Assembly (NCBI RefSeq): GCF_964213995.1
Contig: NW_027590182.1
Span: 558,001 to 622,000, forward strand
From: Mustelus asterias
Taxonomy: Eukaryota
DNA: 64,000 bases
Direction: 5' to 3'
Shown here: positions 12,961 to 62,817 of the stretch, piece after piece
Layout: every line of letters begins with the position of its first letter
Position numbering within the stretch: position 1 is the first letter of the stretch
The notes under the pieces: model-generated
The model's input: only the letters and a program-made list of their open reading frames with translations
Told to the model about the DNA's origin: nothing
Database searches by the model: none
Made by a program: the position numbers and the translations under genes

Positions 12961-13156
12961 TCTGATGAAATGATTAGTTCTGATTGGAATCCCCATGACC
13001 CTCCTTCAAAACAGAGGGAGTGGTGGCAGAAGGAGAAAAATGATAAGGATGATAAAGTCTGGGTTCTGATTCTCCGAGCCCATGTAGAATTAACAAAATG
13101 AGTGAACCAGTTTATAAAGAACAGAAGTTACCCATCCCTAACTTACCCATCCCTAA

Positions 13157-16100
13157 GTAACTCCTAGAAATGAGGCTTGGGTCAATGCCAGGAGGAGGGG
13201 TAAGAAGCAATCGGGAAGACAATCCCCTGGGGCGGTTCCCCTCCATAATAGGTTTTCGGTGCTGGAGGCTACAGTTGAGGAGGAATCAACTGAGCATAGA
13301 GAGCAGATCTCTGGGGGTGAGCCGAGTGAGAAAGCTCAGGTGGTTAGGGACTGTAAAAGACTGGGCCTTGTGATTGGGGACTCCGCAATTAAGGGGACAG
13401 ATAGGAGGGTCGGAACTAAAGGTAGGGACTCAGGGTTGGTGTGTTGCCTACCAGGGGCTGGGGTCCGGGATGTGTCTGACAGGGTATTCAGGACTCTTAG
13501 GGGGAGGGAGATAAACCACAAGTTATTGTACATGTGGGGACACACGACATAGGGAGGATAGGGGAAGGGGATATTAGGCAGGGATTTATGGAGTTGGGGT
13601 GGAAACTAAAGGCCAAGACTGACAGAGTGGTTATCTCTGGACTCTTGCCTGTACCACGGGATAGTTTAGAGAGGAATAAGGAGAGGGAAGGTTTGAATTC
13701 ATGGCTGAGGGGATGGTGCAGGAGGGAGGGGTTCAGGTACTTAAGCAATTGGGGCTCGTACTGGGGAAGGTGTGACCTCTATGAGAAGGATGGTCTACAC
13801 CTTAATCAGAAGGGGACCAATATCCTGGGGGGTAAATTTGCTAAGGCCATGCAGGGAGGTTTAAACTGATTCGGGGGGGGGAGGGATCCTGAGTAGTGGG
13901 GCTGAAAGTGAGGGATGCATGGATGGGGACTGCAATGCACGGCATTGCAGAGGTGGGGTGGAGCAGGGTTTGAAATGTGTATACTTCAATGCCAGGAGTA
14001 TTCGCAATAAAGTGGGTGAACTTGCAGCGTGGATCAGTACCTGGGACTTCGATGTTGTGGCTATTTCAGAGACATGGATAGAGCAGGGGCAGGAATGGAT
14101 GCTGCAGGTCCCGGGGTTCAAATGTTTTAGTCGAAGTAGGGAAGGAGGTAGAAGAGGGGGAGGGGTAGCATTATTGGTCAGAGATTGTATCACAGTGTCA
14201 GAGAGGAGGTTTGATGAGGACTTATCTGTTGAGGTAGTATGGGCGGAGATTAGAAATAGGAGAGGAGAGGTCACCCTGTTGGGAGTCTTTTATAGACCTC
14301 CTAAAAGTTCTAGAGAGGTTGAGGAAAGGATTGCGGAGTCAATCCTGCTTAGGAGTGAAAGTAATAGGGCAATTGTTATGGGGGATTTTAACTTGACTAA
14401 TATTGACTGGAATTGTTATAGCTCTAGCTCGTTAGAGGGGTCAGTTTTTGTTCAAAGCGTGCAGGAAGGTTTTTTGACTCAGTATGTAGACAGGCCAACT
14501 AGAGGTGAGGCTATATTGGATCTGGTGCTGGGAAATGAGCCAGACCAGGTGCTAGACTTGGAAGTTGGTGTGCATTTTGGTGATAGTGACCACAATTCGG
14601 TTACGTTCACCTTAGTGATGGAAAGGGATAGGCATGAACCTCGGGCCAGTGGTTTTAGCTGGGGGAAGGGTAATTATGAGGCTATTAGGAGAGAATTAGG
14701 AAACATAGGTTGGACTAGGAGATTACAGGGACTGGGAACGTCCGACATGTGGAGTTTTTTCAAGGAGCAGCTACTGCGAGTCTGTGATAGGTATGTCCCT
14801 GTCAGGCAAGGAGGAATTGGTAGGGCTAGGGAACCGTGGTGCACCAAAAAAGTTTCTTTGTTGGTTAAAAAGAAAAAGGAGGCTTATGTTCGGATGAGAC
14901 GTGAGCACTCGGGTAGTGCACTAGAAAGCTTTAGATTGGCTAAGAGGGAGTTGAAGAGCGAGCTTAGAAGGGCTAAAAGGGGACATGAGAAGACTTTGGC
15001 GGATAGGGTTAAAGAGAATCCTAAGGCGTTCTATAGGTATGTCAAGAACAGAAGGTTGGTTAGGGCAAGTTTAGGGCCAGTTATAGATGGCAGAGGGAAG
15101 TTATGTGTGGAACCGGAGGAGATTGGTGAAGCATTGAACCAATATTTCTCTTCGGTGTTCACGCAAGGGGACATGAATATAGCTGAGGAGGACACTGGGT
15201 TGCAGGGGAGTAGAATAGACAGTATTACAGTTGATAAGGAGGATGTGCAGGATATTCTGGAGGGTCTGAAAATAGATAAATCCCCTGGTCCGGATGGGAT
15301 TTATCCAAGGATTCTCTGGGAGGCAAGAGAAGTGATTGCAGAGCCTCTGGCTCTGATCTTCAGGTCGTCGTTGGCCTCTGGTATAGTACCAGAAGATTGG
15401 AGGTTAGCGAATGTTGTCCCATTGTTTAAGAAGGGGAACAGAGACTTCCCCGGGAATTATAGACCGGTGAGTCTCACTTCTGTTGTCGGCAAGATGTTGG
15501 AAAAAATTATAAGGGATAGGATTTATAGTTATTTGGAGAGTAATGAATTGATAGGTGATAGTCAGCATGGTTTTGTGGCAGGTAGGTCGTGCCTTACTAA
15601 CCTTATTGAGTTTTTTGAGAAAGTGACCAAGGAGGTGGATGGGGGCAAGGCAGTGGACGTGGTATATATGGATTTTAGTAAGGCGTTTGATAAGGTTCAC
15701 CATGGTAGGCTTCTGCAGAAAATGCAGATGTATGGGATTGGGGGTGATCTAGGAAATTGGATCAGGAATTGGCTAGCGGATAGGAAACAGAGGGTGGTGG
15801 TTGATAGTAAATATTCATCATGGAGTGCGGTTACAAGTGGTGTACCTCAGGGATCTGTTTTGGGGCCACTGCTGTTTGTAATATTTATTAATGATCTGGA
15901 TGAGGGTATAGTTGGGTGGATTAGCAAATTTGCTGATGACACCAAAGTCGGTGGTGTGGTAGACAGTGAGGAAGGGTGTCGTAGTTTGCAGGAAGACTTA
16001 GACAGGTTGCAAAGTTGGGCCGAGAGGTGGCGGATGGAGTTTAATGCGGAGAAGTGTGAGGTAATTCACTTTGGTAGGAATAACAGATGTGTTGAGTATA

Positions 16101-16847
16101 GGGCTAACGGGAGGACTTTGAATAGTGTGGAGGAGCAGAGGGATCTAGGTGTATGTGTGCATAGATCCCTGAAAGTTGGGAATCAAGTAGATAAGGTTGT
16201 TAAGAAGGCATATGGTGTCTTGGCGTTTATTGGTAGGGGGATTGAATTTAGGAGTCGTAGCGTTATGTTGCAACTGTACACAACTCTGGTGCGGCCGCAC
16301 TTGGAGTACTGTGTGCAGTTCTGGTCCCCACATTACAGGAAGGATGTGGAGGCTTTGGAGAGGGTGCAGAGGAGGTTTACCAGGATGTTGCCTGGTATGG
16401 AGGGGAGATCCTATGAGGAGAGGCTGAGGGATTTGGGATTGTTTTCGCTGGAAAGGCGGCGGCTAAGAGGGGATCTTATTGAAACATATAAGATGATTAG
16501 AGGTTTAGATAGGGTGGATAGTGATAGCCTTTTTCCTCTGATGGAGAAATCCAGCACGAGGGGGCATGGCTTTAAATTGAGGGGGGGTAGTTATAGAACC
16601 GATGTCAGGGGTAGGTTCTTTACCCAGAGGGTGGTGAGGGATTGGAATGCCCTGCCAGCATCAGTAGTAAATGCGCCTAGTTTGGGGGCGTTTAAGAGAT
16701 CCGTAGATAGGTTCATGGACGAAAAGAAATTGGTTTAGGTTGGAGGGTCACAGTTTTTTTTTTTTTTTTTTTACTGGTCGGTGCAACATCGTGGGCCGAA
16801 GGGCCTGTTCTGCGCTGTAATGTTCTATGTTCTATGTTCTATGTTCT
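13157..16847 (+). mobile_element. CR1 LINE #1, 5'-truncated, frameshifted ORF1 (SGNH esterase), intact ORF2
   Basis: IGDS esterase motif in ORF1 pieces; (ATGTTCT)n tail; empty paralogous site at 34038-34065. Confidence 0.95.
13919..16738 (+). CDS. CR1 ORF2: APE endonuclease plus reverse transcriptase
   Basis: YFNARSI, ISETW, MGDFN, SDHN (APE); [21 protein letters not shown] (RT). Confidence 0.95.
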   Translation: MDGDCNARHCRGGVEQGLKCVYFNARSIRNKVGELAAWISTWDFDVVAISETWIEQGQEWMLQVPGFKCFSRSREGGRRGGGVALLVRDCITVSERRFDEDLSVEVVWAEIRNRRGEVTLLGVFYRPPKSSREVEERIAESILLRSESNRAIVMGDFNLTNIDWNCYSSSSLEGSVFVQSVQEGFLTQYVDRPTRGEAILDLVLGNEPDQVLDLEVGVHFGDSDHNSVTFTLVMERDRHEPRASGFSWGKGNYEAIRRELGNIGWTRRLQGLGTSDMWSFFKEQLLRVCDRYVPVRQGGIGRAREPWCTKKVSLLVKKKKEAYVRMRREHSGSALESFRLAKRELKSELRRAKRGHEKTLADRVKENPKAFYRYVKNRRLVRASLGPVIDGRGKLCVEPEEIGEALNQYFSSVFTQGDMNIAEEDTGLQGSRIDSITVDKEDVQDILEGLKIDKSPGPDGIYPRILWEAREVIAEPLALIFRSSLASGIVPEDWRLANVVPLFKKGNRDFPGNYRPVSLTSVVGKMLEKIIRDRIYSYLESNELIGDSQHGFVAGRSCLTNLIEFFEKVTKEVDGGKAVDVVYMDFSKAFDKVHHGRLLQKMQMYGIGGDLGNWIRNWLADRKQRVVVDSKYSSWSAVTSGVPQGSVLGPLLFVIFINDLDEGIVGWISKFADDTKVGGVVDSEEGCRSLQEDLDRLQSWAERWRMEFNAEKCEVIHFGRNNRCVEYRANGRTLNSVEEQRDLGVCVHRSLKVGNQVDKVVKKAYGVLAFIGRGIEFRSRSVMLQLYTTLVRPHLEYCVQFWSPHYRKDVEALERVQRRFTRMLPGMEGRSYEERLRDLGLFSLERRRLRGDLIETYKMIRGLDRVDSDSLFPLMEKSSTRGHGFKLRGGSYRTDVRGRFFTQRVVRDWNALPASVVNAPSLGAFKRSVDRFMDEKKLV

Positions 16848-17056
16848 AACAAAAACTGATCAAATTAAAATAATTAGGTTGAGGAAGAGAACAAAAGAAT
16901 TCATAGATAAAGTTTAAAATCAACTTTGTTTTGTTGTTAGAGAAGTTTTTAAAAATTATGTAAAGTGATGTAACTGTGTGCCAAGTTTCTTCTCACTCCC
17001 CACCCCTTTCGGTTCTGTAGAAAAGTTAACCCTTTCAGCAGACAGTTGATTTAGTC

Positions 17057-29895: not shown

Positions 29896-31054
29896 CTGAC
29901 ATTTAAGAGGACAGTAAATTAATATAGGATAGAGACATGTCGAGTGTTGTTATATGATATAGATTAGATATATTATTTATGACTCTGAAATAATATACAT
30001 TTATTATTATTTATAGTCTTGTACTATAGAAACGTAGCTACGTTATATATTTCCAGTCATCTCCTCAGGCAATTGTTATTCTTGAATTTCCTTTCCACAG
30101 GGATCATTGCAGGCTAAGAATCATTAAATATCTTCCAGGATGAGTTAGACTGATTTTTGACTGACAAGACTGTCAAGGCTTATGGGGAACATATGGGGAA
30201 ATGGAGAGAAAGCTAAGATGACGAGGGATTTCCTCATTCAAGTATGTGGTGAAGCTTTGGAATTCTCTACCCTGGCGGCCTGTGGAGCCTCAGTCATCAA
30301 GAATTTTCAGGAGAGAGAGAGAGAGAGAGCGATTGGTTTCTAGATATTGAAGAAATCAAGGGAGATGGGTTTAGTGATGGGAGAATGATGCTGAGGTAGA
30401 TGAGCCAATGATCTCACGGACTGGTTTAAAAGGCTCGATAGACCAATTGGCCAATCGCAGTTCCAATTTGTTATTATTTCTGTGCTGGACAGGAAGTAGT
30501 GAGCATGGATCTGCCAATCAACTTCAATCAGCACCTTCAGGAGAATTGGGAGGGTGAATATTAGATACAGCAGAGTGAGAATGGAGGGAGAGTGTGTGGG
30601 ATGGAGATTTAGAGCTTTTGGGGAATGAGAGAGGAAAGAATGTTCCATAGAAACTAGAACTGTCTGTTCTGAATTTCTATCCTGTACTGACAGTGATGAC
30701 GTTTGCAAACTTGTTTTACAGGATATTGAAAGAGGAATCACATGCAGAAATCTCAATCGTCACATCTAGATCTGACAGAGTCATATTCCTTGGGACCTGA
30801 ATATCATCAGCTTTTGAATCCAGAAGGACAAATGATTGTCTGGTCTGTCGATTTGAAAGGATTTTAAATGTCAGTTTGACTGGAAAAGGACCAACACACT
30901 GCCACAATCAAATGAGAGTGTTCAAGTGCATTGACTAAAGAGCTGAATACAGATCGCACCATTAACAGTGGGGAGAGACTGCACTTGTGTTGTGTGTGTG
31001 TTAACGAGGCTTCAACTGATTGTCCACCAAAGAGAGAGGCAAGGACACTGCACC

Positions 31055-32233
31055 ATGGAGAAACCATGGAAATGTGGGGACTGTGGGAAGAGATACAGAT
31101 ACCCATCAGAACTGGAAGTTCATTGGCGCAGTCACACTGGAGAGAGGCCATTCACCTGCTCTCAATGTGGCAAGGGATTCAGTGAAATATCCCACCTGCG
31201 GACACACCAGCGAGTTCACACTGGGGAGAGGCCGTTCGCCTGCTCTCAGTGTGGGAAGGGATTCAGTCAGTTATCCGAGCAGCGGACACACCAGCGAGTT
31301 CACACTGGGGACAGACCATTCACCTGCTCACAGTGTGGGAAGGGATTCACTCATTCATCCAACCTGTGGAAGCACCAGCGAGTTCACACTGGGGAGAGGC
31401 CGTTCACCTGCTCTCACTGTGGGAAGGGATTCAGTGATTCATCCAACCTGCGGGCACACCAGGGAGTTCACACTGGGGAGAGGCCGTTCACCTGCTCTCA
31501 GTGTGGGAAGGGATTCAGTGAATCTTCCCGCATGAGGAGACACCAGGGAGTTCACACTGGGGAGAGGCCGTTCACCTGCTCTCAGTGTGGCAAGGGATTC
31601 AATGAAACATCCCACCTGCGGAGACACCAGCGAGTTCACACTGGGGAGAGGCCGTTCACTTGCTCTCAGTGTGGGAAGGGATTCACTCAATTATCCCACC
31701 TGCAGACACACCAGCGAGTTCACACTGGGGAGAAGCCGTTCACCTGCTCTCAGTGTGGGAAGGGATTCAGTCAGTTGTCCAGCCTGCAGACACACCAGCG
31801 AGTTCACACTGGGGATAGGCCATTCACCTGCTCCCAGTGTGGGGAGGAATTCACTAATTTATCCAGCCTGCAGATACACCAGCGAGTTCACACTGGGGAG
31901 AGACCATTCACCTGCTCTCAGTGTGCGAAGGGATTCAGTCAGTTATCCAACCTGCGGAAACACCAGCGGGTTCACACTGGAGAGAGACCATTCACTTGCT
32001 CTCAGTGTGGGAAGGGATTCAGTCAGTTATCCACCCTGCAGACACACCAGCGAGTTCACACTGGGGAGAGACCATTCACCTGCTCTCAGTGTGGGAAGGG
32101 ATTCACTCATTCATCCAACCTGCGGAAGCACCAGCGAGTTCACACTGGGGAGAGACCATTCACCTGCTCTCAGTGTGCGAAGGGATTCAGAGTTTCATCC
32201 CAGCTGCTGAGACACCAACAAGTTCATGAGTGA
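31055..32233 (+). CDS. C2H2 zinc-finger protein, 14 fingers (unit G5)
   Basis: CACCATGG at 31055, 392 aa; upstream mini-exon about 30485-30553 and intron 30554-30721. Confidence 0.9.
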
Positions 32234-41339: not shown

Positions 41340-42243
41340 CTTGTGAACTCACTGGTGTTTCACCAAGTTTGCTGACTGAGTGAATCACAGTCAGAGCAGG
41401 TGACCAGCCTCTGCCCAGTGTGAACTCACTGAAGTACCCATGGGTTGGATGACTTAGTGAATCCCTTCCCACACTGAGAGCAGCTCCCCAGTGTGAACTC
41501 GCTGGTGTTTCGGCAGTGCTGAAGATATTCTAAATCTCTTTGAGCAGTGAGAGCAGCTGAACGGCCTCTCCTCAGTGTGAATGCGCTGGTGGGACATCAG
41601 CTCTGAGAGCTTTTGAAGCCACTTCCACAGTCAGAGCATTTGAAAGGCCTCAGATTGGTGTGAGTGACTTTATGTCTGAGCAGGCTGGATGACTGAGTGA
41701 ATCCCTTCCCACACAAAGAGCAGGTAAATGGTCTCTCCCCAGTGTGAACTCGCTGGTGGGACACCAGTTCTCCAGAGCTTTTGAATCTGCTCCCACAGTC
41801 AGAGCATTTAAAGGATCTCTCATTGGTGTGAGTGAGATTATGACTCAGCAGGTGGGATAACTGAGTGAATCCCTTCCCACAGTCAGAACAGGTGAATGGT
41901 CACTCCCCAGTGTGAACTCGCTGGTGTCTCTGCAGATTGGATGAGCTTTTAAACCTCTTTCTGCAGTGAGAGCATCTGAACGGTCTCTCCTCAGTGTGAC
42001 ACCTGGTGGGACACTGGTTCTCCAGAGGTTTTGAAGCCAATGCTACAGTCAGAGCATTTAAACGTTCCCTCATTGGTGTGAGTGAGATTGTGTTTCTGCA
42101 GGCTGGATAACTGAGTGAATCCCTTCCCGCACACAGAGCAGGTGAATGGCCGCTCCCCAGTGTGACTGCATCGATGAGATTCCAGCTGTGATGGGACCCT
42201 GAATCGCCTCCCACAGTCCCCACATTTCCACGGTTTCCCCCTG
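41340..42243 (-). pseudogene. C2H2 ZNF pseudogene G6
   Basis: Start codon changed to AGG (RGKPWKC), frameshifts at about 42000, 41600 and 41483; exon-1 donor reads GA instead of GT at about 44178. Confidence 0.85.
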
Positions 42244-42927
42244 GTGCGGGTGTTCTTGTGACTCTCCAGGTTCAACAATCAGTTAAATCTCACACAGAAC
42301 ACGGGTACAGTCTCTCCCCGCTGTGAACGCTGCGGTGTATTTTCAGGCTGTGTAACTGGTTGAATCTCTTCCCACACAGTACACTGGAACACACTCACTC
42401 GGGTGTATCTGTGTCTCAGTGATTTTTCAGTTACATTTATGTTTAAAAAAATTCTGAAGCAGACAGAACAGAAAAAGATTTCTCCTTTTAGATTCAAAGG
42501 CCAATGATATTCAGGTCCTGATCAAATGAATAAATCTGTCAGGTCTTGATGTGTTGTTTGATTTGAGATTTCTGCCTGTAAATCCTCACCTTCTGCAAAT
42601 CTATCGTGCAAAAGGAGTTTATAAGATTCATCAGTGTCAGTACAGGATAGAAATTCAGAACAGACAATTCTAGTTTCTATGGAACATTCTTTCCTCTCTC
42701 ATTCCCCAAAAGCTGTAAATCTCCATCCCACACACTCTCCCTCCATTCTCACTCTGCTGTATCTAATATTCACCCTACCAATTCTTCAAAAGGTGCTGAT
42801 TCAGGCTGATTGACAGATCTATGCTCACTGCTTCCTGTCCTGGGTGTGGAGATGTCGGCGTTGGACTGGGGTAGACACAGTAAGAAGTTTCACAACACCA
42901 GGTTAAAGTCCAACAGCTTTATTAGTA

Positions 42928-44625: not shown

Positions 44626-44757
44626 ATGTAATTTAAACAATGCCTGAGATCACTTCACTTCTTGGTCATAGAACATAGAACATAGAACATAGAAAGCCAC
44701 AGCACAAACAGGCCCTTCGGCCCACAAGTTGCGCCGATCATATCCCTACCTCTAGGC

Positions 44758-47670
44758 CTATCTATAGCCCTCAATCCCATTAAATCCCATGTACTCATCC
44801 AGAAGTCTCTTAAAAGACCCCAACGAGTTTGCCTCCACCACCACCAACGTCAGCCGATTCCACTCACCCACCACCCTCTGAGTGAAAAACTTACCCCTGA
44901 CATCTCCTCTGTACCTACACCCCTGCACCTTAAACCTGTGTCCTCTCGTAGCAACCATTTCAGCCCTTGGAAATAGCCTCTGAGAGTCTACCCTATCCAG
45001 ACCTCTCAACATCTTGTAAACCTCTATCAGGTCACCTCTCATCCTTCGTCTCTCCAGGGAGAAGAGACCAAGCTCCCTCAACCTATCCTCATAAGGCATG
45101 CTCCCCAATCCAGGCAACATCCTTGTAAATCTCCTCTGCACCCTTTCAATGGCTTCAACATCTTTCCTGTAATGAGGTGACCAGAACTGTGCGCAGTACT
45201 CCAAGTGGGGTCTAACCAGGGTCCTATAAAGCTGCAGCATTATCTCCCGACTCCTAAACTCAATCCCTCGATTAATGAAGGCTAGTACGCCGTACGCCTT
45301 CTTGACCGCATCCTCCACCTGCGAGGCCGATTTAAGAGTCCTATGGACCCGGACCCCAAGGTCCTTCTGATCCTCTACACTGCTAAGAATGGTACCCTTC
45401 ATATTATACTGCTGCTTCATCCCATTGGATCTGCCAAAATGGATCACCACACACTTATCCAGGTTGAAGTCCATCTGCCACTTCTCCGCCCAGTCTTGCA
45501 TTCTATCTATGTCTCGCTGCAACTTCTGACATCCCTCCAAACTATCCACAACACCACCTACCTTGGTGTCGTCAGCAAACTTACCAACCCATCCCTCCAC
45601 TTCCTCATCCAGGTCATTTATGAAAATGACAAACAGCAAGGGTCCCAGAACAGATCCCTGGGGCACTCCACTGGTCACTGACCTCCATGCAGAGAAAGAC
45701 CCCTCCACAGCCACTCTCTGCCTTCTGCAGGCAAGCCAGTTCTGGATCCACAAGGCAACAGCCCCTTGGATCCCATGCCCTCTCACTTTCTCAAGAAGTC
45801 TTGCATGGGGGACCTTATCGAACGCCTTGCTGAAGTCCATATAGACCACATCCACCGCTCTTCCTTCGTCAATGTGTTTGGTCACATTTTCAAAGAACTC
45901 AACCAGGCTCGTAAGGCATGACCTGCCCTTGACAAAGCCGTGCTGACTACTTTTGATCATACTAAACTTCTCTAGATGATCATAAATCCTGTCTCTCAGG
46001 ATCCTCTCCATCAACTTACCAACCACTGAGGTTAGACTCACCGGTCGGTAATTTCCCGGGCTGTCCCTGTTCCCTTTCTTGAATATAGGGACCACATCTG
46101 CAATCCTCCAATCCTCCGGAACCTCTCCCGTCTCCATCGACGATGCAAAGATCATCGCCAAAGGCTCCGCAATCTCCTCCCTCGCCTCCCACAGTAACCT
46201 GGGGTACATCCCATCCGGTCCCGGCGACTTACCAACCTTGATGCCATTCAATAGTTCCAACACATCCTCTTTCTTTATGTCCACATGCTCGATTCTTTCT
46301 GTCCACCGCAAACCAGCAGTACAACCACCCAGATCCCTTTCCACCGTGAATACCGAGGTAAAGTATTCATTAAGCACCTCCGCCATTTCTAACGGTTCCG
46401 CACAAACTTTTCCCCCTTCACCTTTTAAGGGTCCTATGCCTTCACATCTCATCCTTTTACTCTTGACATATTTGTAGAAAGCCTTGGGATTCTCCTTAAT
46501 CTTACCCGCCAAGGTCTTCTCATGACCCCTTCTCGCTCTCCTAATTTCCTTCTTAAGTTCCTTCCTACATCCCGTATACTCCTCTAAATCCTTAACACCT
46601 CCTAGCTCTCTGAACCTTCTGTACGCCTCTCTTTTCTTATTCACCAGGTTCATCACAACCTTCGTGCACCACGGTTCCCGTACCCTACCAACACCCCCCT
46701 GTCTCATCGGAACGTTGTCATGCAGAGCTCCAGACAAACATTCCTTGAAAATCCTCCACTTTCCTTCGGTACTTTTCCCCAAGAATGCCTCCTTCCAATT
46801 TACCCGTCTAATTTCCTCCCTGATGACACTGTATTTCCCTTTACTCCAGAGAAACACTTTCCTAGCCTGCCTGATCCTATCTCTTTCCAATGCTATCGTG
46901 AAGGAGATAGAATTATGATCGCTATCCCCAAGATGCTCACCCACCGAGAGATCCTCCACCTGTCCAGGTTCATTAGCCAGCACCAGATCAAGTACAGCCT
47001 CTCCTCTAGTAGGCTTATCCACATACTGTGTCAGGAAACTCTCCTGGACACACCTAACAAACTCCTCTCCATCCAAACCCCTAGCCCTAGGGATATTCCA
47101 ATCTATGTTTGGGAAATTAAAATCTCCCATCACGACAACTCTGTTATTCCTACATCTCTCCAGGATCTGTTTCCCCATCTGCTCCTCAACATCTCTGTTA
47201 CTATTGGGCGGCCTATAGAAAACACCCAGCAAAGTTACCGACCCCTTCCTGTTCCTAACCTCCACCCACAGAGACTCCGTAGTCAATCCCTCCACGGCGT
47301 CCACCTTCTCTACAGCCGCGACACTATCCCTGATCAACAGTGCCACTCCCCCCCCTCTCTTGCCTCCCTCCCTGTCCTTCCTGAAACATCTAAAACCCGG
47401 CACCTGAAGCACCCAGTCCTGTCCCTGAGACATCCAAGTCTCCGTAATGGCCACCACATCACAATTCGAAGCAGCAATCCACGCTCCAAGCTCATCCACT
47501 TTATTCACTACACTCCTGGCATTAAAATAGACACATCTCAGACCTTCAGCCTGAGCATTTCCCTTCTCCATCACTCGTCTAACCTCCCTCTTACCCTGTC
47601 TACATTCCTTATCTATTTGCGAGCTAACCTCCTCGCTCTCAGTCCCCTCATTTCGATTCCCTCCCCCCAA
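44758..47670 (-). CDS. CR1 ORF2 (APE plus RT), open from the slippery site at 47685
   Basis: 970 aa uninterrupted with all APE and RT motifs. Confidence 0.95.
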   Translation of the reverse strand: MGGGNRNEGTESEEVSSQIDKECRQGKREVRRVMEKGNAQAEGLRCVYFNARSVVNKVDELGAWIAASNCDVVAITETWMSQGQDWVLQVPGFRCFRKDREGGKRGGGVALLIRDSVAAVEKVDAVEGLTTESLWVEVRNRKGSVTLLGVFYRPPNSNRDVEEQMGKQILERCRNNRVVVMGDFNFPNIDWNIPRARGLDGEEFVRCVQESFLTQYVDKPTRGEAVLDLVLANEPGQVEDLSVGEHLGDSDHNSISFTIALERDRIRQARKVFLWSKGKYSVIREEIRRVNWKEAFLGKSTEGKWRIFKECLSGALHDNVPMRQGGVGRVREPWCTKVVMNLVNKKREAYRRFRELGGVKDLEEYTGCRKELKKEIRRARRGHEKTLAGKIKENPKAFYKYVKSKRMRCEGIGPLKGEGGKVCAEPLEMAEVLNEYFTSVFTVERDLGGCTAGLRWTERIEHVDIKKEDVLELLNGIKVGKSPGPDGMYPRLLWEAREEIAEPLAMIFASSMETGEVPEDWRIADVVPIFKKGNRDSPGNYRPVSLTSVVGKLMERILRDRIYDHLEKFSMIKSSQHGFVKGRSCLTSLVEFFENVTKHIDEGRAVDVVYMDFSKAFDKVPHARLLEKVRGHGIQGAVALWIQNWLACRRQRVAVEGSFSAWRSVTSGVPQGSVLGPLLFVIFINDLDEEVEGWVGKFADDTKVGGVVDSLEGCQKLQRDIDRMQDWAEKWQMDFNLDKCVVIHFGRSNGMKQQYNMKGTILSSVEDQKDLGVRVHRTLKSASQVEDAVKKAYGVLAFINRGIEFRSREIMLQLYRTLVRPHLEYCAQFWSPHYRKDVEAIERVQRRFTRMLPGLGSMPYEDRLRELGLFSLERRRMRGDLIEVYKMLRGLDRVDSQRLFPRAEMVATRGHRFKVQGCRYRGDVRGKFFTQRVVGEWNRLTLVVVEANSLGSFKRLLDEYMGFNGIEGYR

Positions 47671-48611
47671 CCTTTCTCGTTTAAAGTCTCTCCAGTAGCC
47701 TTAGCCAACCTTCCCGCCAGGATATTGGTCCCCCTGGGATTCAAGTGCCACCCGTCTTTTTTAAACAGGTCACACCTGCCCCTAAAGAGGTCCCAATGAT
47801 CCAAGTACCCAAATCCTTGTCCCTTGCTCCAGTCCCTCAGCCACGCATTCATTCTCCACCGATTCCTGTTCTCACTCTCCCGCGGCACAGGCAGCAATCC
47901 CGAGATTACTACCTTTGCATTCCTCTTTCTCAGCTGTCTACCTAACTCCCTACATTCTCTTTTCATGACCCCTTCCCTCTTCCTACCTATGTCAGCAGTA
48001 CCTATATGCATCACGACCTTCGGCTCCTCTCCCTCCCCCTTCAGGATTTCTGGGACTCGACCAGAGACATCCCGGACCCCTGCACCAGGGAGGCAAACCA
48101 CCATCCGAGAGTCCCGTCTGTGTCCGCAAAAACGCCTATCTGACCCCCTCACCGTAGAGTCCCCAATTAGCACTACCCTCCTTTCCTTACCCTTTTGCAC
48201 TACTGGGCCAGGCTCAGCTCCAGAGACACTGCCACTGCTGCTTCCCCCAGGTGGGCTGTCCTCCCCAGTAGTACTCAGACAGGAGTACTTATTATTAAGG
48301 GGCACATCCACCGGGGTGCTCACCATCAACCGAGCTTTCTCCTTCCTCACTGTTACCCAGTTACCCTCCTCCCGTGGTCCCGGTGTGACCACCTGCCGAT
48401 AGCTCCTGTCAATGACCTCCTCACTATCCCTAACCCGGCGAAGGTCCTCGAGCTGCAATTCAAGTTCCCTAACATGGTCCCTTAGGAACCGCAGCTCAAC
48501 ACACCCAGCACAGATATGGTCGTCCGGGAGGCTAGGAGCCTCCAGGACCTCCCACATCCTACATTGGGAACAACATACTGGCCTCACACTCATAATTGCC
48601 CTTTTAAACAC
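47613..48611 (-). CDS. CR1 ORF1: Cys-rich zinc finger / leucine zipper plus SGNH esterase
   Basis: CSQC...CAGC, LRDHVRELELQLEDL, IGDS, CLPGAG, DGWHLN; first ATG is 6 codons in. Confidence 0.9.
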   Translation of the reverse strand: MFKRAIMSVRPVCCSQCRMWEVLEAPSLPDDHICAGCVELRFLRDHVRELELQLEDLRRVRDSEEVIDRSYRQVVTPGPREEGNWVTVRKEKARLMVSTPVDVPLNNKYSCLSTTGEDSPPGGSSSGSVSGAEPGPVVQKGKERRVVLIGDSTVRGSDRRFCGHRRDSRMVVCLPGAGVRDVSGRVPEILKGEGEEPKVVMHIGTADIGRKREGVMKRECRELGRQLRKRNAKVVISGLLPVPRESENRNRWRMNAWLRDWSKGQGFGYLDHWDLFRGRCDLFKKDGWHLNPRGTNILAGRLAKATGETLNEKGWGEGIEMRGLRARRLARK

Positions 48612-50407: not shown

Positions 50408-50998
50408 TCACTCGTGAACTCGCTGGTGTCTCAGCAGGTGGGATGAAGCTCTGAACCCCTTCCCACACTGAGAGCAGGTGAATGGCCTCTCCCCAGTGTG
50501 AAGTCGCTGGTGCGTCTGCAGGCTGGATAACTGAGTGAATCCCTTCCCACACTGAGAGCAGGTGAATGGTCTCTCCCCAGTGTGAACTCGCTGGTGTTTC
50601 TGCAGGTGAGCTAATTGACTGAACCCCTTCTCACACTGAGAGCAGGTGAATGGCCTCTCCCCAGTGTGAAGTCGCTGGTGCGTCTGCAGGCTGCATAACT
50701 GAGTGAATCCCTTCCCACACTGAGAGCAGGTGAATGGTCTCTCCCCAGTGTGAACTCGCTGGTGCTTCTGCAGGTTAGCTAATTGACTGAACCCCTTCTC
50801 ACACTGAGAGCAGGTGAATGGTCTCTCCCCAGTGTGAACTCGCTGGTGTGTCCGCAGGGTGGATAAATCAGTGAATCCCTTCTCACACTGAGAGCAGGTG
50901 AATGGTCTCTCCCCAGTGTGGCTGCGCCGATGAACTTCCAGCTGAGATGGGGCTCTGCATCCCTTCCCACAGTCCCCACATTTCCATGGTTTCTCCAT
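50408..50998 (-). CDS. C2H2 zinc-finger protein, 7 fingers (unit G7)
   Basis: CACCATGG at 50998, 196 aa = 7 x 28. Confidence 0.85.
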
Positions 50999-52029
50999 GG
51001 TGCAGGTGTCTTTTCCTCTCTCTTGAGTTGAAGACTCGTCCACACACAGAACAGTCTCCCCCCGCTGTGAATGGTGTGATATTTATTCAGGCTGTGTAAC
51101 TGGTTCAAGCTCAGTGCACTGGAACACTCTCACTCCAGTGTGGCAGCGTGTTGGCTCTTTTCCAGTCACATTAATGTTTGAAATCTTTTCAAGTCATCAG
51201 ACCGGACAACCATTTCTCCTCGATTCAAAGGCCGATGATATTCAGGTCCTAAGGAATATGACTCTGTCAGATCTAGACACAACGTTTGAGATTTCAGCCT
51301 GTGATTCCTCTTTCAGTATCCTGTAAAACAAGTTTACAGAGGTCATCAGTGTCAGTGCAGGATAGAAATTCAGAACACACAATTCTAGTTTCTATGGAAC
51401 ATTCTTTCCTCTCTCCAGACTCGAAACATTGGCTCTATTCTCTCTCTATCTGGGGGATAGCGTGGGAAATGATGCTGCGGTAGATCAGCCAATTCTCAAT
51501 GAATGGTTGAGGCAGTTCGATGGGCTGAATGGCCAACTGCAGCTCCTGTTTCTTATGATTTGTGTGTCCACGACAGGAAGCAGTGAGCATGGATCTGTCA
51601 ATCAGCCTCAATCAGCACCTTCAGGAGAATTGGGAGGGTGAATATTAGATACAGCAGAGTGAGAATGGAGGGAGAGTGTGTGGGATGGAGATTTACAGCT
51701 TTTGGGGAATGAGAGAGGAAAGAATGTTCATTAGAATCATAGAATTCCTACATCTTATCAACCGTCCCTGAGCCTTCATAATGAATCTCTCTTCTCAAGA
51801 CATTCTTATCTCTGACTTGTCTGTGCTGCTCGCAGTCTCACAAAGCAGCTGCCTGTGTGTTGACACAAGGGGCCCTGCGAGGCAAGTTTAATGCTCCATG
51901 ACTGTGTCTTTAATGACTGAATAACTATAGGAATATGGTCAAGTCAGCTAAATCACATGATGCTTTATATTTCGGTTAGTAACTGTCCATTTTGTTAACA
52001 TAGCACATTTGGATATATAAATACATATA

Positions 52030-54092: not shown

Positions 54093-54933
54093 ATGGAGAA
54101 ACCATGGAAATGTGCAGACTGTGGGAAGAGATACAGAGCCCCATCTCTGCTGGAAGCTCATCGGCTCATCCACACTGGGCAGCGGCCGTTCATCTGCTCT
54201 TAGTGTGGGAAGAGATTCACTCAGTCATCCAGCCTGCAGAGACACCAGCAAGTTCACACTGGGGAGAGGCCATTCACGTGTTCTCAGTGTGGGGAGGGAT
54301 TCACTCGATCTTCTGACCTGCTGGTCCATGAGCGCATTCACACTGGGGAGAGGCCGTTCACCTGCTCTCAGTGTGGGAAGGGATTCATTCGGTCTTCCGA
54401 CCTGCGGAAACACCAACGAGTTCACACCGGGGAGAGGCCCTTTACCTGCTCTCGATGTGGGGAGGGAATCACTCAGTCATCCCACCTGCAGAGACACAAG
54501 CGAGTTCACACTGGGGAGAGGCCATTCACCTGCTCTGTGTGTGGGAAGGGTTTCTGTGATTCATCCAGCCTGCTGACACACCAGCGAGTTCACACTGGGG
54601 AGAGGCCATTCACCTGCTCTCAATGTGGGAAGGGATTCACTGGGTCCTCCCGCCTGCAGATGCACCAGCGAGTTCACACTGGGGAGAGGCCATTCACCTG
54701 CTCTCAGTGTGGGAAGGGTTTCTGTGATTCATCCAGCCTGCTGACACACCAGCGAGTTCACATTGGGGAGAAACCGTTTACCTGCTCTCAGTGTGGGAAG
54801 GGATTCACTCGGTTATCCAACCTGCGGATACACCAGCGAGTTCACACTGGGGAGAGACCGTTCAGCTGCTCTGTGTGAGAAGATATTCAGTCTTTCATCC
54901 CATCTGTTGAGACACCAACAAGTTCACGAGTGA
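54093..54933 (+). pseudogene. C2H2 ZNF pseudogene G8 (10 fingers)
   Basis: CAG to TAG at 54201 (codon 37); 2-nt deletion at about 54875; upstream acceptor region replaced by a CR1 tail. Confidence 0.85.
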
Positions 54934-56390: not shown

Positions 56391-59300
56391 GCTTTGGCTC
56401 ACAGGGCTTCGGCGAAGGCGAGGAAGGTTGTTTGTTTTTCTTCTGTTACACCCCCTTTTTTGTTTTATCTCCCAAAAACTAAAAAGGACATGGCTGGTAT
56501 GAGTGGGAGGCCAGTATACTGCATTCGGTGTGGGATGTGGGAGTTCCTGGAGACAACTTGCCTCCCGGAAGTCCATATCTGTGCCAGATGCGTGGAACTG
56601 CAACTCCTGAAGGATCGTGTAAGGGAGCTGGAGCTGAGGCTCGATGAACTCAGTTTAGTTAGGGCAAATGAGAGATTAATAGATAAAGGTTATAGTCAGG
56701 TAGTGACACCAGGGTCTCGGAAGGAAGACACGTGGGTCACAGTTAGGAGGGGTAATAGTCAGAAGGGTGATGTGCCAGAAAGTACCCCAGTGGCAGTCTC
56801 CCGTAAAAGAAAGGGATGGCAACAGATGGGAGAAGGGAAGGGAGTGAGCAGTCTGTGGAGGGATCCCCTGTGGTTGTCCCCCTCCAAAATAGGTATATTG
56901 TTTTGGATTCTGTGGAGGGGGATGACCCTCCAGGGGTAAGCCACGAGGACCAGATCGCCTCCACGGAGACAGGCTCAAGGGTCCGGAAGGGAAAGAAGCG
57001 ATTTAGGAGAGCGATAGTTGTGGGGGACGCAATGGTTAGAGGCACGGACAGGCGGTTCTGTGGGAGTGAACGAGAATCCAGGATGGTAGTCTGCCTCCCT
57101 GGAGCCGGGGTACTGGATGTCTCCGAGAGGGTAGGAAGCATATTTAAAAAGGAAGGTAGTCAAACGGATGTGATTATACACATTGGTGAAAATGATGTCG
57201 GTAGGAAGAGCAGGGGGGTCATACGAGAGAAATTCAGGGAGTTGGGTGCTAGGCTAAAAAGTAAGGCCTCCAGGGTAGCAATCTCTGGACTGCTCCCGGT
57301 GTCTAGTGCAAGTGAGGCTCGGAACAGGGAGATTCTACAGTTGAACGCGTGGCTAAAGGACTGGTGCAAGAGGGAGGGTTTTTAATTCATAGATAACTGG
57401 GAAATCTTCAAGTCAGGATGGCAACTGTACAGAAAGGATGGGTTACACCTTAACTGGAAGGGAGCAAATATCCTGGCTGGGAGTTTTGCGAGAGTGTTTC
57501 GGCAGGATTTAAACTAGTGTGGCAGCGGGGTGGGGAACAAAACAGTAGGTCAGTAAATACTGAGGCTGGGGTTGAGCTGGGGGCCAGGGCAAGGCTAGCT
57601 AAGAAGAGGAGCACTCTGGAGGAGGATGACCTGAGTGGGCCTGGAGGTCTGGAGTGCATCTGCTTCAATGCAAGGAGCGTAACGGGTAAAACAGACGAAC
57701 TTAGGGCCTTAATGCTTATGCGGAATTTGGATGTGGTTGCGGTGACGGAAACTTGGTTAAAAGAAGGACAGGACTGGCAGCTGAATATTCCAGGGTATAA
57801 GTGTTTTAGGCGAGACAGAGGAGGGGCTAAAAAAGGTGGGGGAGTAGCGATATTAGTTAAGGAGCATGTTACCGCGGTGCAGAGGGTAGACAACTTGGAG
57901 GGGTCATGTACTGAGTCGCTGTGGGTGGAACTCAGAAACAGGAAGAGTGCAGTCACTATGCTGGGGGTGTACTACAGACCACCTCTCGGCCCACGGGAAG
58001 TGGAGGAAAGGATATGTCAGGAGATTCTGGATAGGTGCAGAAAAAATAGGGTTGTTGTAGTGGGGGACTTTAATTTCCCTGGCACAGACTGGAAAGTGCT
58101 TAGAGCTGGGGGTCCGGATGGGGAGGAATTTGTAAAATGCGTACTGGAAGGTTCTTTGGAACAGTATGTAGATAGCCCGACTAGAGAGGGGGCTATACTG
58201 GACCTAGTTCTGGGAAATGAGCCCGGTCAGGTCGTCAAAGTTTCGGTAGGGGAACATGTGGCAAATAGTGACCACAACTCTGTTAACTTTAGGATAGTAA
58301 TGGACAAGGATGAGTGCTGTCCTACGGGCAGGGTGCTAAATTGGGGGAAGGCTGACTACAGCCGGATTAGGCAGGAATTGGTGGATGTTGATTGGGAGAG
58401 GATGTTCGAGGGTAAGTCCGCGTCTGGCATGTGGGAGTCTTTTAAGGAACTATTGATAAGACTGCAGGATAGGCATGTGCCTGTAAAAAGGAAAGATAGG
58501 AAAGGTAGGATTCGAGAGCCGTGGATAACCAGGGAAATTGAGGATCTGATTAAAATGAAAAGGGAGGCGTACGTTAAGTCGAGGCAACAGAAAACAGATG
58601 GAGCTCTGGAGGAATACAGAGAGAGTAGGAAAGAACTCAAACGGGGAGTTAGAAGGGCAAAAAGAGGTCACGAGATGTTCTTGGCAGGCAGGATTAAGGA
58701 GAATCCTAAGGCATTCTATTCATACGTTAGGAACAAAAGAGTTGTCAGGGAGAAAATCGGACCTCTCAGGGACAAAGGAGGGGAATTATGCTTAGGACCC
58801 AAGGGAATAGGGGAGATCCTAAATGAATACTTTGCATCGGTATTCACGAAGGAAAGGGGCGTGTTAACCGGGACTGTCTCGGAGGGAGGTGTTGACCCGT
58901 TAGAGAAAATCTCCATTACAAGAGAGGAAGTGTTAGGTTTTTTAGGGAACATTAAAACTGACAAAGCCCCATGGCCTGATGGCATCTATCCTCGACTGCT
59001 CAGGGAGACGAGAGATGAAATTGCTGGGCCTCTGACGGAAATCTTTGTCGCTTCTTTGGACACGGGTGAGGTCCCTGAGGATTGGAGGATAGCGAATGTG
59101 GTCCCGTTGTTTAAGAAGGGTAGAAGGGATAACCCAGGAAATTATAGGCCGGTGAGCTTGACGTCCGTGCTAGGGAAGTTGTTGGAGAGGATTCTTAGAG
59201 ACAGGATGTATGTGGATTTAGAACGGAACAATCTCATTAGTGACAGACAGCATGGTTTTGTAAGAGGGAGGTCGTGCCTTACAAATTTGGTGGAATTTTT

Positions 59301-60575
59301 TGAGGAAGTGACAAAAACGGTTGATGAAGGAAGGGCCGTGGATGTCGTCTATATGGATTTCAGGAAGGCATTTGACAAAGTCCCACATGGCAGGTTGGTT
59401 AAGAAGGTTAAGGCTCATGGGATACAAGGAGAAGTGGCTAGATGGGTGGAGAACTGGCTTGGCCATAGGACAGTAAGAAGTTTAACAACACCAGGTTAAA
59501 GTCCAACAGGTTTATTTTCATAGGCCATAGGAGACAGAGGGTAGTGGTCGAAGGGTCTTTTTCCGGCTGGAGGTCTGTGACCAGTGGTGTTCCACAAGGC
59601 TCTGTACTGGGACCTCTGCTATTTGTGATATATATAAATGATTTGGAAGAAGGTGTAACTGGTGTAATCAGCAAGTTTGCGGATGACACGAAGATGGCTG
59701 GACTTGCGGATAGCGAAGAGCATTGTCGGGCAATACAGCAGGATATAGATAGGCTGGAAAATTGGGCGGAGAGGTGGCAGATGGAGTTTAATCCGGATAC
59801 ATGCGAAGTGATGCATTTTGGAAGAAATAATGTAGGGAGGAGTTATACAATAAATGGCAGAGTCATCAGGAGTATAGAAACACAGAGGGACCTAGGTGTG
59901 CAAGTCCACAAATCCTTGAAGGTGGCAACACAGGTGGAGAAGGTGGTGAAGAAGGCATATGGTATGCTTGCCTTTATAGGACGAGGTATAGAGTATAAAA
60001 GCTGGAGTCTGATGATGCAGCTGTATAGAACGCTGGTTAGGCCACATTTGGAGTACTGCGTCCAGTTCTGGTTGCCGCACTACCAGAAGGACGTGGAGGC
60101 GTTAGAGAGAGTGCAGAGAAGGTTTACCAGGATATTGCCTGGTATGGAGGGTCTTAGCTATGAGGAGAGATTGGGTAAACTGGGGTTGTTCTCCCTTGAA
60201 AGACGTAGAATGAGGGGAGATCTAATAGAGGTGTACAAGATTATGAAGGGGATAGATAGGGTGAACGGTGGGAAGCTTTTTCCCAGATCAGAAGTGACGT
60301 TCACGAGGGGTCACGGGCTCAAGGTGAGAGGGGCGAAGTATAACTCAGATATTAGTGGGATGTTTTTTACACAGAGGGTGGTGGGGGCCTGGAATGCTCT
60401 GCCAAGTAGGGTGGTGGAGGCAGGCACGCTGACATCGTTTAAGACTTACCTGGATAGTCACAGGAGCAGCCTGGGAATGGAGGGATACAAACGATTGGTC
60501 TTGTTGGACCAAGGAGCGGCACAGGCTTGGAGGGCCGAAGGGCCTGTTTCCTGTGCTGTACTGTTCTTTGTTCTT
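56391..60575 (+). mobile_element. CR1 LINE #3, near full length; ORF1 has a frameshift and a nonsense codon, ORF2 broken by a 52-bp PLE insert
   Basis: 7-bp TSD TGTGAGG; ORF1 CIRC...CARC plus VGDA esterase; ORF2 at 57517-59470 and 59533 onward. Confidence 0.95.
59471..59522 (-). mobile_element. 52-bp PLE 3' terminus insert
   Basis: 10-bp TSD GGCCATAGGA (59461-59470 and 59523-59532). Confidence 0.9.
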
Positions 60576-61344
60576 TGTGAGGTCTTTGTATGAGCTGAGT
60601 TGTAAATCAGTGGAAAGCCAGCATAATACTTGGTCTCTGAAACGTTTCTACATCCATGAACTTTGTTTTAAAGAAATCCACATTTGAAAGCCCGGCCACG
60701 ACATGAAATATCAGCACCATAACAAGAGGAGATAAGAAAGACAGACACTCACTTTGATCTTTTCATCAGCAATCTGAGAGTTAAGAATGTGTGACATGAT
60801 TTTCGGACACTGGAGTGAGTGTACAGATGTGATTTGTTACATGTGAAAAATAGCAAGCCTAAATTCATGGTGAGATGGAGTGAAGAGCGGGTCCCAAACA
60901 CACACAGCTACTTGAGACACAGCAGGAGATGAAATGGCTAATGTGGCCAGGGGGTTGAGACAACATTGTGACATCATCAAGGCATTGACACACACTCCAG
61001 AGAAACTGAGTTCAAAACAATCAGGATCCAATTAAACACACTGCACATGCTCACACAGTGAGGAAAATTACAGTAAAATGGATCATATAATGGATTGGGA
61101 CAACTAAGGGCTTGGGAGAAATAATACTGAGTAAGAACTGTCCACAAGTTGGATAGGGGTAAAGAGAGCTGGAGAATCTTTTACATCTTTTATGGACTAG
61201 TAACCCAGAACTGACAGCGCTCCTTCAGGAGTAGGAAAGGTCGAGTAGATGTGACCCCAGGCGGGACAGGAACAGAACTGGAAAATAACGGAGTGGAATT
61301 GAAATTGTCTCAATGACTGAACTAACAATGTGTGGAATGGACAG

Positions 61345-61860: not shown

Positions 61861-61943
61861 GCTTCAATTTTTAACTTCTGGGTCACCACTCGCTGCCTAA
61901 GTAAAGATTCTCCTCACATTCTCTATGTATCTCTCACCGGGTA

Positions 61944-62817
61944 ATAGTTTGGAGGGATGTCAGAAGTTGCAGCGAGACATAGATAGAATGCAAGACTGGG
62001 CGGAGAAGTGGCAGATGGACTTCAACCCGGATAAGTGTGTAGTGATCCATTTTGGCAGATCCAATGGGATGGAGCAGCAGTATAAAATGAAGGGTACCAT
62101 TCTTAGCAGTGTAGAGGATCAGAAGGACCTTGGGGTCCGGGTCCATAGGACTCTTAAATCGGCCTCGCAGGTGGAGGATGCGGTCAAGAAGGCGTATGGC
62201 GTACTAGCCTTCATTAATCGAGGGATTGAGTTTAGGAGTCGGGAGATAATGCTGCAGCTTTATAGGACCCTGGTTAGACCCCACTTGGAGTACTGCGCGC
62301 AGTTCTGGTCACCTCATTACAGGAAAGATGTTGAAGCCATTGAAAGGGTGCAGAGGAGATTTACAAGGATGTTGCCTGGATTGGGGGGCATGCCTTATGA
62401 GGATAGGTTGAGGGAGCTTGGTCTCTTCTCCCTGGAGAGACGAAGGATGAGAGGTGACCTGATAGAGGTTTACAAGATGTTGAGGGGTCTGGATAGGGTG
62501 GACTCTCAGAGGCTATTTCCAAGGGCTGAAATGGTTGCTACGAGAGGACACAGGTTTAAGGTGCTGGGGGGTAGGTACAGGGGGGATGTCAGGGGTAAGT
62601 TTTTCACTCAGAGGGTGGTGGGTGAGTGGAATCGGCTGACGTCGGTGGTGGTGGAGGCAAACTCGTTGGGGTCTTTTAAGAGACTTCTGGATGAGTACAT
62701 GGGATTTAATGGGATTGAGGGCTATAGATAGGCCTAGAGGTGGGGATGTGATCGGCGCAACTTGTGGGCCGAAGGGCCTGTTTGTGCTGTGGCTTTCTAT
62801 GTTCTTTCTATGTTCTA
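61944..62817 (+). mobile_element. 5'-truncated CR1, close relative of CR1 #2
   Basis: Protein nearly identical to the C-terminal 260 aa of 44758-47670. Confidence 0.95.

Follow-up and report, generated by a model that had tools for sequence, protein, structure and literature searches.

A likely programmed −1 frameshift site at the ORF1/ORF2 junction of shark CR1 elements

ORF2 expression in related elements

In sharks, reptiles and birds, CR1 ranks among the major LINEs. Described vertebrate CR1 elements (chicken CR1 and turtle PsCR1, with a zinc-finger/esterase ORF1) resemble the copies studied here in their SGNH esterase ORF1, their ORF2 with APE and RT, and their repeat tail. A frameshift is said to have been proposed for Dictyostelium TRE5-A, and no passage proposing it was found in the TRE5-A literature searched. 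TRE5-A is a two-ORF LINE with overlapping ORFs (PMC5633606). L1 and SART1 are two-ORF LINEs like CR1, the frames being separated by a 63-nt spacer in L1 and joined by an overlapping stop-start in SART1 (PMC5972666). ORF2 translation in LINEs has been called an open question (PMC3894237); the worked cases, L1 and SART1, use reinitiation, and a fixed slip site would answer the question for CR1.

U_UUA_AAC, G_GGA_AAC and A_AAA_AAC are listed among the sequences at which mammalian ribosomes shift most readily (PMC5009743). A 2016 review anticipated natural frameshifting stimulated by a G tract or a quadruplex, of which it knew no case. The literature search, with founding CR1 papers outside its scope, found no paper assigning a frameshift site to CR1, and the word "frameshift" is absent from the text of Suh 2014, Galbraith 2021 and Metcalfe 2014; an earlier mention of the site could be present in the annotations of repeat libraries. 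From sequence comparison, the CR1 junction is likely a programmed −1 frameshift site yielding ORF2 as an ORF1-ORF2 fusion. This reading, put forward in the initial annotation, is supported, as an inference, by invariant Leu and Asn codons, the −1 phase and a slippery heptamer in distant relatives.

CR1 copies and junctions in the window

The window (the whole 64-kb stretch of DNA analysed) contains three long CR1 copies, and one further CR1 junction was found in 200 kb beside it. ORF1 was recognised as an SGNH esterase by matches to PF13472 and to the structure 4C1B, and PF03372/PF14529 and PF00078 were matched in all three copies, giving an ORF2 with an APE endonuclease and RT. Over its full length, ORF2 was 44-46% identical to bird-like loci vs 22-23% to L2-type elements, and by these comparisons the window elements belong to the CR1 clade of LINEs. 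CR1 copies end in a short tandem repeat tail without poly(A) and are frequently 5'-truncated.

The first copy (13156..16848, plus strand) is truncated at 13156 within ORF1, has a frame break near 13500 and ends in a repeat tail. Its heptamer and TGA stop lie at 13860..13869, followed by a run of nine G and AGGG (13873..13885), and its ORF2 spans 13865-16738. In the second copy (minus strand), ORF1 (47679..48590) encodes 304 aa with a Cys-rich N-terminus and the esterase (PF13472). Its last codons, Leu and Asn, form the heptamer T_TTA_AAC (47679..47685), and the candidate stimulator, a G tract, is found at 47659..47671 (+7 to +19 behind the heptamer). The ORF2 frame (44758..47700) opens five codons ahead of the heptamer in the −1 frame and encodes a 54-aa linker, APE (motif Asn codon at 47523) and RT; the 3' UTR (44667..44757) has the short tandem repeat tail at its end. 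The coding part and tail of the third copy occupy 56499..60578 (plus strand); ORF1 is broken near 56800 and has one internal stop, and ORF2 is interrupted near 59450-59500. Here the heptamer and TAG stop lie at 57508..57517 and the G tract at 57522..57535, with ORF2 in the −1 frame and no ATG ahead of the APE motif (Asn codon at 57667).

TTTAAAC is located at 13860-13866 (plus), 47685-47679 (minus) and 57508-57514 (plus) and is phased T_TTA_AAC in all three copies, as the initial annotation had reported. In each, Leu-Asn are the last two ORF1 residues, 26 codons from the DGxH esterase motif. TTTAAAC alone is common (27 matches on both strands of the window); the non-chance part is its place and phase. 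In the second and third copies the −1 frame was likewise confirmed to run without a stop from the heptamer to within the APE domain; in the first, ORF2 lies in +1 and the −1 frame meets a stop after 10 codons.

Two details of the annotation were not upheld. The span had been drawn to 47613, which is the end of a read-on in the window copy: the codon behind the heptamer (47676..47678) is TAG, the ORF1 stop, in 26/30 of the closest loci and GAG in 4/30, the window copy among them, so the stop directly after the heptamer is the family state. The codon-for-codon alignment claimed for the three junctions fails past the G tract, where the linkers have an identity of 0.39-0.50 and unequal lengths.

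Conservation of the heptamer, phase and G tract

Silent positions were compared in 19 sequence clusters from 149 copies of this genome. The base ahead of Leu was T in 19/19 clusters (spanning seven amino acids), the Leu codon was TTA in 18/19 and the Asn codon AAC in 19/19, with a stop next in 19/19, although these clusters share descent and the counts are not independent. Fixation of the preceding T, TTA and AAC had been proposed as a check, and none of them varies among families. Control Leu codons 4 and 12 were TTA in 0/19 clusters each, control Asn codon 10 was AAC in 3/16, and none of the 43 codons upstream of the heptamer had an invariant third base. TTA made up 4/78 and 11/84 of the Leu codons in two ORF2s. 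Within one family the heptamer was intact in 96/100 copies, a figure that reflects only post-insertion decay. As judged from these alignments, the heptamer site is kept at silent positions, and changes stay inside the slippery X_XXY_YYZ pattern.

That the Leu-Asn end was kept for ORF1 protein function, with codons inherited by chance and ORF2 made another way, is extremely improbable: the families have common ancestry and LN is terminal in 43/114 distant ORF1 proteins, but protein need cannot fix silent bases, a second Leu-Asn pair 20 codons upstream has 13 spellings and the heptamer spelling in 0/97 copies, the CR1 ORF1 profile match to the solved esterase 4C1B (E 4.7e-43; positions 145-307 of 311) stops ahead of LN, and the residues that substitute, GN or KN, are both slippery-type.

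A −1 step at the heptamer entered ORF2 in 81/112 copies, and among these 81 the ORF2 frame ran unbroken up to the APE motif in 71, against 2 and 0 for the other two frames. When copies were sampled blind to the junction, only 56/93 were in −1 as counted from the DGxH anchor. Both this and the 31/112 out-of-phase copies we put down to decay after insertion. The consistency of the −1 phase held when checked across families: it was the commonest ORF1-to-ORF2 phase in each family with at least five copies (family 1 sampled without bias), and modal linker lengths differed among families by multiples of three. Besides family 1, another family had 61/100 copies in −1 phase. One divergent family had been taken as out of phase from three single copies, and this was rejected, as 59/100 copies have the −1 length.

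For the first window copy, a sample of family 1 drawn with the copy's own junction gave 40 identical copies with G9 and was discarded as biased; the junction was resampled from sequence upstream of it, leaving its pattern open. This yielded 2591 genomic matches, and the first 100 listed comprised G10 77, G11 16, G12 3, G9 2, G13 1 and G14 1, with −1 phase in 78/100. The guess that one more G would place this copy in −1 was therefore correct, G10 being the commonest family state. G9 is a minority state shared by at least 40 copies and not private to the window copy, and the extra G of family 1 was also present in contigs from three public runs.

The G tract lies 10-19 bases behind the heptamer and is fixed in place at wobble positions; a single locus (L233) lacks it. 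In local folding of 26 representatives, no stem-loop of the sort that stimulates −1 shifts from 5-9 nt downstream was common to them (z between −2.2 and +2.1), and a duplex scan of 39 elements found no recurring long-range partner within the element except an upstream coding motif. A quadruplex was part of the predicted lowest-energy fold in 11/26 junctions vs 10/182 ORF2 windows. Of the G-rich structure suggested as a stimulator, the conserved tract stands, but the local folding and the duplex scan found no shared fold.

Relatives were sought in 33 metagenome loci, 15 of which ended ahead of the junction or were unreadable there. T_TTA_AAC_TAG was kept in seven bird-like loci, and four further loci had T/G_TTA_AAC followed by a stop. 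Three distant loci forming one clade (96/97) had G_GGA_AAC, another slippery class, and in one of them the −1 ORF2 was open over 300 codons; in the readable DNA, the change to G_GGA_AAC counts as a single event. In a sister clade of four loci, one TGA-C separates ORF1 from an in-frame ORF2, and the junction is of readthrough type. In the tree of relatives, little weight can be given to the positions of L225, L115 and L136, which are broken upstream. Among distant ORF1 proteins, 62/114 ended in a slippery-encodable dipeptide (LN 43, GN 13, KN 3; background 4.8%), including those of swallow, snake, lizard and turtles, and 52/114 had no slippery-type terminal dipeptide. No relative was found in the viral and prokaryote contigs scanned.

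Proposed mechanism, alternatives and known systems

Under the proposed frameshift, most ribosomes would terminate at the ORF1 stop, freeing ORF1p with its Leu-Asn end. In a minority, the Leu-tRNA and Asn-tRNA on UUA and AAC would re-pair with UUU and AAA, and the next codon would be CUA; the fusion product from the second window copy would have about 1277 residues (304 + 973). Less firmly, the G tract may slow the ribosome when at its mRNA entry; a protein-bound single strand or a small quadruplex is likelier here than a stem-loop. The adjacent stop may add to the effect through slow termination.

Ribosomes might instead terminate and restart close by, at an AUG or another codon, making ORF2p a separate protein, as has been proposed for L1 and SART1 (PMC5972666, PMC3894237). 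This also explains the open linker, and the −1 codon overlapping the stop occupies the position of an AUGA stop-start; that codon is CUA in 26/27 representatives, two changes from AUG, and CUG in family 1, and no AUG overlapped the ORF1 stop in the 27. Some bird-like loci have an AUG two bases behind the stop. Counting against a frameshift, Met was present in 10/10 non-shark linkers readable to the APE motif, and it was the fifth linker codon in 4/5 readable bird-like linkers. Among shark representatives, Met was found in 3/12 linkers; no ATG preceded the APE motif in 48/81 in-phase copies, and its position varies where present. Reinitiation leaves the fixed T, TTA and AAC and the change to G_GGA_AAC unexplained, and is considered unlikely.

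Fusion at the RNA level is very improbable. Here, polymerase slippage adding a base at the T/A run, or splicing, would join the frames or free an ORF2 message. Junction G runs differ in length among copies, and CTAG and CTAA/CTGA at the junction resemble the consensus of acceptor or branch signals. The runs within the heptamer are just three long, however, stop type and the base behind the stop both vary among representatives, and spliced RNA would return to the genome, whereas the junction is retained in the copies. G-run slippage cannot fuse the frames because the run sits behind the ORF1 stop.

If the programmed frameshift is real, the slip site would set the ORF1p:ORF2p ratio, and RT is predicted to be tied to a lipid-binding esterase, ORF1p. 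The annotation of CR1 ORF2 would change, many families having no start codon, and an uncommon G-rich stimulator would become available in thousands of naturally occurring CR1 variants.

The ZfL2-1 element and related fish elements (PDB 4C1B) have the esterase in common with CR1 (E 4.7e-43). Unlike the probable frameshift junction of CR1, that of four ZfL2-1-type loci is of readthrough type, with a lone TGA-C ahead of an in-frame ORF2; ORF2 of one (L217) is 22-23% identical to that of CR1 over its length. For ZfL2-1, Kajikawa (2012) reportedly put forward stop suppression. Because the sister clade has this TGA-C junction, ORF1-ORF2 fusion through recoding is in keeping with the wider group. More tentatively, and less likely than not, LINEs of the esterase type in sharks through birds, probably also in invertebrates, might make RT as a Gag-Pol-like fusion by recoding (−1 frameshifting in CR1, readthrough in the fish L2 type). 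A G tract lying 10 bases past the site would then drive the CR1 shift, a natural case of stimulation by a G tract or quadruplex.

In the arterivirus PRRSV, frameshifting is stimulated by a protein, and a C-rich motif follows the site at a distance of 11 nt (PMC5009743). The CR1 tract has a similar spacing but is G-rich and its binder only putative, so that the likeness is one of layout alone. Compared with X_XXY_YYZ frameshifting systems, CR1 is a non-LTR element, has a stop directly behind the site, and carries a G tract without a conserved stem-loop among 26 representatives. It has the same heptamer classes and phase (IBV U_UUA_AAC; G_GGA_AAC; the equine arteritis virus G_UUA start; retroviral gag-pol), and its order matches the retroviral gag-pol type, with the structural gene first and the polymerase in −1 (PMC5009743).

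Elements in the window and their ORF1/ORF2 junctions

The window (G000:C150:558001-622000, from a 3.68-Gb genome) contained three long LINE copies (#1, #2 and #3) and C2H2 zinc-finger arrays, named from their motif, in both orientations (11-871, 6588-7772, 11037-12251, 24056-24448, 30947-32233, 41900-42271, 50408-51082, and 54204-54878). Domain searches detected APE and RT in ORF2 of all three copies and an SGNH esterase in ORF1 of #2, which matched the ZfL2-1 esterase structure (4C1B). ORF2 identity was 59-63% among the copies, 44-46% to bird-like CR1 loci, and 22-23% to one L2-type locus; the nearest named relatives of ORF1 came from rays, skates, and sharks, suggesting that the DNA is from a cartilaginous fish, and short repeat tails closed the 3' ends. 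By sequence comparison, the copies were assigned to CR1. Short CR1 3' fragments lay at 20802-21506 (minus strand, matching the end of #1 ORF2), 24406-25302 (plus), and 61901-62731 (minus, matching the end of #2 ORF2), and a reading frame at 63006-63575 (plus), going by a motif, may be the start of a Penelope-type RT. The 5' UTRs of #2 (48649-48598, minus) and #3 (~56410-56485, plus) resembled an intron in having a donor-like word and, further on, a tract of pyrimidines with an AG just before the ORF1 start; in #2 the stretch was only ~52 nt, short for an intron.

The heptamer TTTAAAC, reported in the initial annotation, was present in all three copies (13860-13866, plus; 47685-47679, minus; 57508-57514, plus); read in phase as T_TTA_AAC, it encodes the Leu-Asn with which ORF1 ends. 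The phase of ORF2 was -1 in #2 and #3, as annotated, and +1 in #1 as found. One more G had been proposed to restore -1 in #1, and its family indeed mostly carried G10, the tenth G also being borne by contigs from three public runs. A query built on the junction of #1 itself had returned at least 40 identical G9 copies, which at first spoke against this repair; that argument was dropped, as an open-pattern search of the genome (2591 matches) gave G10 as the commonest state (among the first 100 matches listed: G10 77, G11 16, G12 3, G9 2, G13 1, G14 1). The run (13873-13881 in #1) drifted mainly upward, 21 of the 100 listed copies being longer than G10 and 2 shorter, which assembly bias or slippage of the RT may explain. 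In the family of #2, TAG directly followed the heptamer in 26 of the 30 closest loci, and this ORF1 stop was lost in the window copy. One locus of this genome (L171; G000:C12:51334300-51339500, minus) had the two ORFs joined into one frame of 1290 codons by a change of one base close to where ORF1 ends; as far as seen, it is one decayed copy and no family state.

ORF2 phase and codon choice at the heptamer

The CR1 junction is most probably a programmed -1 frameshift, retrovirus-style in a LINE; a change at the RNA level is a very unlikely alternative. The tRNAs on UUA and AAC would re-pair with UUU and AAA, and the slipped ribosome, at whatever rate, would escape the stop adjoining the heptamer and yield an ORF1p-linker-APE-RT fusion (~1277 residues in #2). 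A review (PMC5009743) counts U_UUA_AAC, G_GGA_AAC, and A_AAA_AAC with the sites at which mammalian ribosomes shift most readily.

Measured from the DGxH anchor in 93 copies that had been sampled without regard to the junction, ORF2 was -1 in 56, 0 in 19, and +1 in 18. A -1 step at the heptamer reached ORF2 in 81 of 112 copies, a set including 12 loci found by a pattern fixing part of the slip site. Among these 81, the ORF2 frame was open up to the APE motif in 71, compared with 2 and 0 for the remaining frames. The -1 frame was usually shut by a stop five codons upstream of the heptamer, and any shift would therefore be confined to the heptamer region. That ORF2 is made by reinitiation is improbable: 48 of the 81 in-phase copies had no ATG upstream of the APE motif, and a start codon downstream of the first APE motif would remove an active-site strand. 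Modal anchor-to-APE distances by family (179, 191, 194, 200, 203, 209, 212, 230, 239, and 290) differed by multiples of three only. In a divergent family that had looked out of phase, 59 of 100 copies were of the length that gives -1.

Many CR1 families were sampled with an ORF1 motif excluding the junction (7941 genome matches), and further copies came from a Pfam search and 40 additional genome stretches. ORF1 was open across the last 46 codons at 149 of 180 junctions, and these 149 formed 19 clusters; the clusters are not 19 independent trials, because of junction-based queries (dominating three clusters), single copies (at least seven), and common ancestry. The synonymous choices, whose fixation the initial annotation had named as a check, were fixed almost throughout: the base preceding Leu was T in 19/19 clusters, in a codon for Gly, Ser, Asp, Thr, Arg, Cys, or Ala; Leu was TTA in 18/19 (the exception, TTT, being a single copy); Asn was AAC in 19/19; and a stop came next in 19/19 (TAG 13, TAA 5, TGA 1). 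None of 43 upstream codons had an invariant third base. A constraint on the protein that keeps Leu-Asn is the least probable explanation: two other invariant Leu codons were TTA in 0/19 clusters each, and the Leu-Asn of the DGLHLN motif had 13 spellings in 97 copies, none giving the heptamer.

Junctions in other lineages

In a set of 150 representatives of distant ORF1 proteins, the catalytic motif lay 15-45 residues before the C-terminus in 114, and 62 of these ended in a dipeptide encodable by X_XXY_YYZ (LN 43, GN 13, KN 3, three others), against a background of 4.8% among internal dipeptides; the L2-like subset gave 2/16. Named proteins ending in LN included those of swallow, snake, lizard, and turtles. 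Another distant group (P0091, P0115, P0137, P0195, and others) ended in FF plus one residue, and U_UUU_UUY would encode FF. A protein filed as a Pseudomonas aeruginosa SGNH hydrolase (P0023) is likely a contaminant, as it shared 54% identity with the CR1 ORF1 of sharks and ended in LN. Two manta ray 'transmembrane protein 204' isoforms (P0054, P0055) started with a CR1 ORF1 piece, which may reflect capture of an exon or an error of annotation.

A single scan of metagenomes yielded 33 loci, 18 with a readable junction. T_TTA_AAC_TAG was found in the seven loci nearest to the swallow protein, T_TTA_AAC with a stop in three more, G_TTA_AAC_TAG in one, and G_GGA_AAC in three. The last formed a single clade (support 96/97) and apparently represent one switch of three bases with the slippery pattern retained. 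The -1 frame was traceable to the APE motif in 10 of these 14 loci; three contigs ended early and one was broken. The remaining four (L214:1081, L216:1315, L217:~1817, L222:1259), fish L2-type esterase elements, formed a sister clade (99/98) with readthrough-type junctions: one TGA separates ORF1 from an ORF2 in the same frame, and the next base is C (in two loci, the next four are CTAG), a context known for readthrough (PMC13517186). Met occurred in all ten readable non-shark linkers, which counts against the frameshift reading; four of the five bird-like linkers among them had it at codon five, where three other bird-like loci had TGG, TCG, or GTG. As judged from these sequences, conservation of the junction site spans cartilaginous fish and birds and reaches further still.

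The G tract and known recoding systems

In 27 representatives (13 metagenomic, and 14 of this genome that were selected for an open ORF2 in the -1 phase), G was found behind the heptamer in 25 at +7, 22-26 at +10 to +14, and 20-23 at +17 to +19. In the ORF2 frame, +7, +10, +13, and +19 fall on third codon positions (background G frequency 0.37-0.41), where G was kept under varying amino acids, and constraint therefore acts on the RNA. The annotated G-rich tract was thus retained at fixed positions. As to the G-rich structure suggested with it, folding of the 60 bases that follow the heptamer gave no shared stem (z -2.2 to +2.1), and a quadruplex, mostly two-tier, was predicted in the lowest-energy fold of 11/26 representatives versus 10/182 ORF2 windows. 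As of 2016, natural use of quadruplexes in frameshifting was not known, according to the consulted part of PMC5009743. No recurring distant pairing partner was found in 39 elements. One locus (L233:692) had T_TTA_AAC_TAG and a -1 ORF2 without the G tract; it has a predicted hairpin (z -2.2) that begins 7 nt past the slip site.

Stop suppression has reportedly been proposed for ZfL2-1 and a frameshift for TRE5-A. A literature search found no paper on CR1 frameshifting; passages of PMC3905857, PMC4120745, PMC8665684, PMC5972666, PMC4316615, PMC3159450, PMC5633606, PMC5006619, PMC4700185, and PMC1925062 were among those covered. A passing suggestion in Haas 1997, Kajikawa 1997/2012, Kapitonov 2003, repeat-library notes, or supplements is quite possible. 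The term 'CR1' was absent from the first 300,000 of 449,034 characters of PMC5009743, and PMC3894237, in the part consulted, treats the way ORF2 is initiated as unsettled without putting frameshifting forward. In PRRSV, a protein-bound C-rich motif lies 11 nt behind the slip site (PMC5009743, same part), and the CR1 G tract, which may have a role in the slip, stands at a similar spacing.
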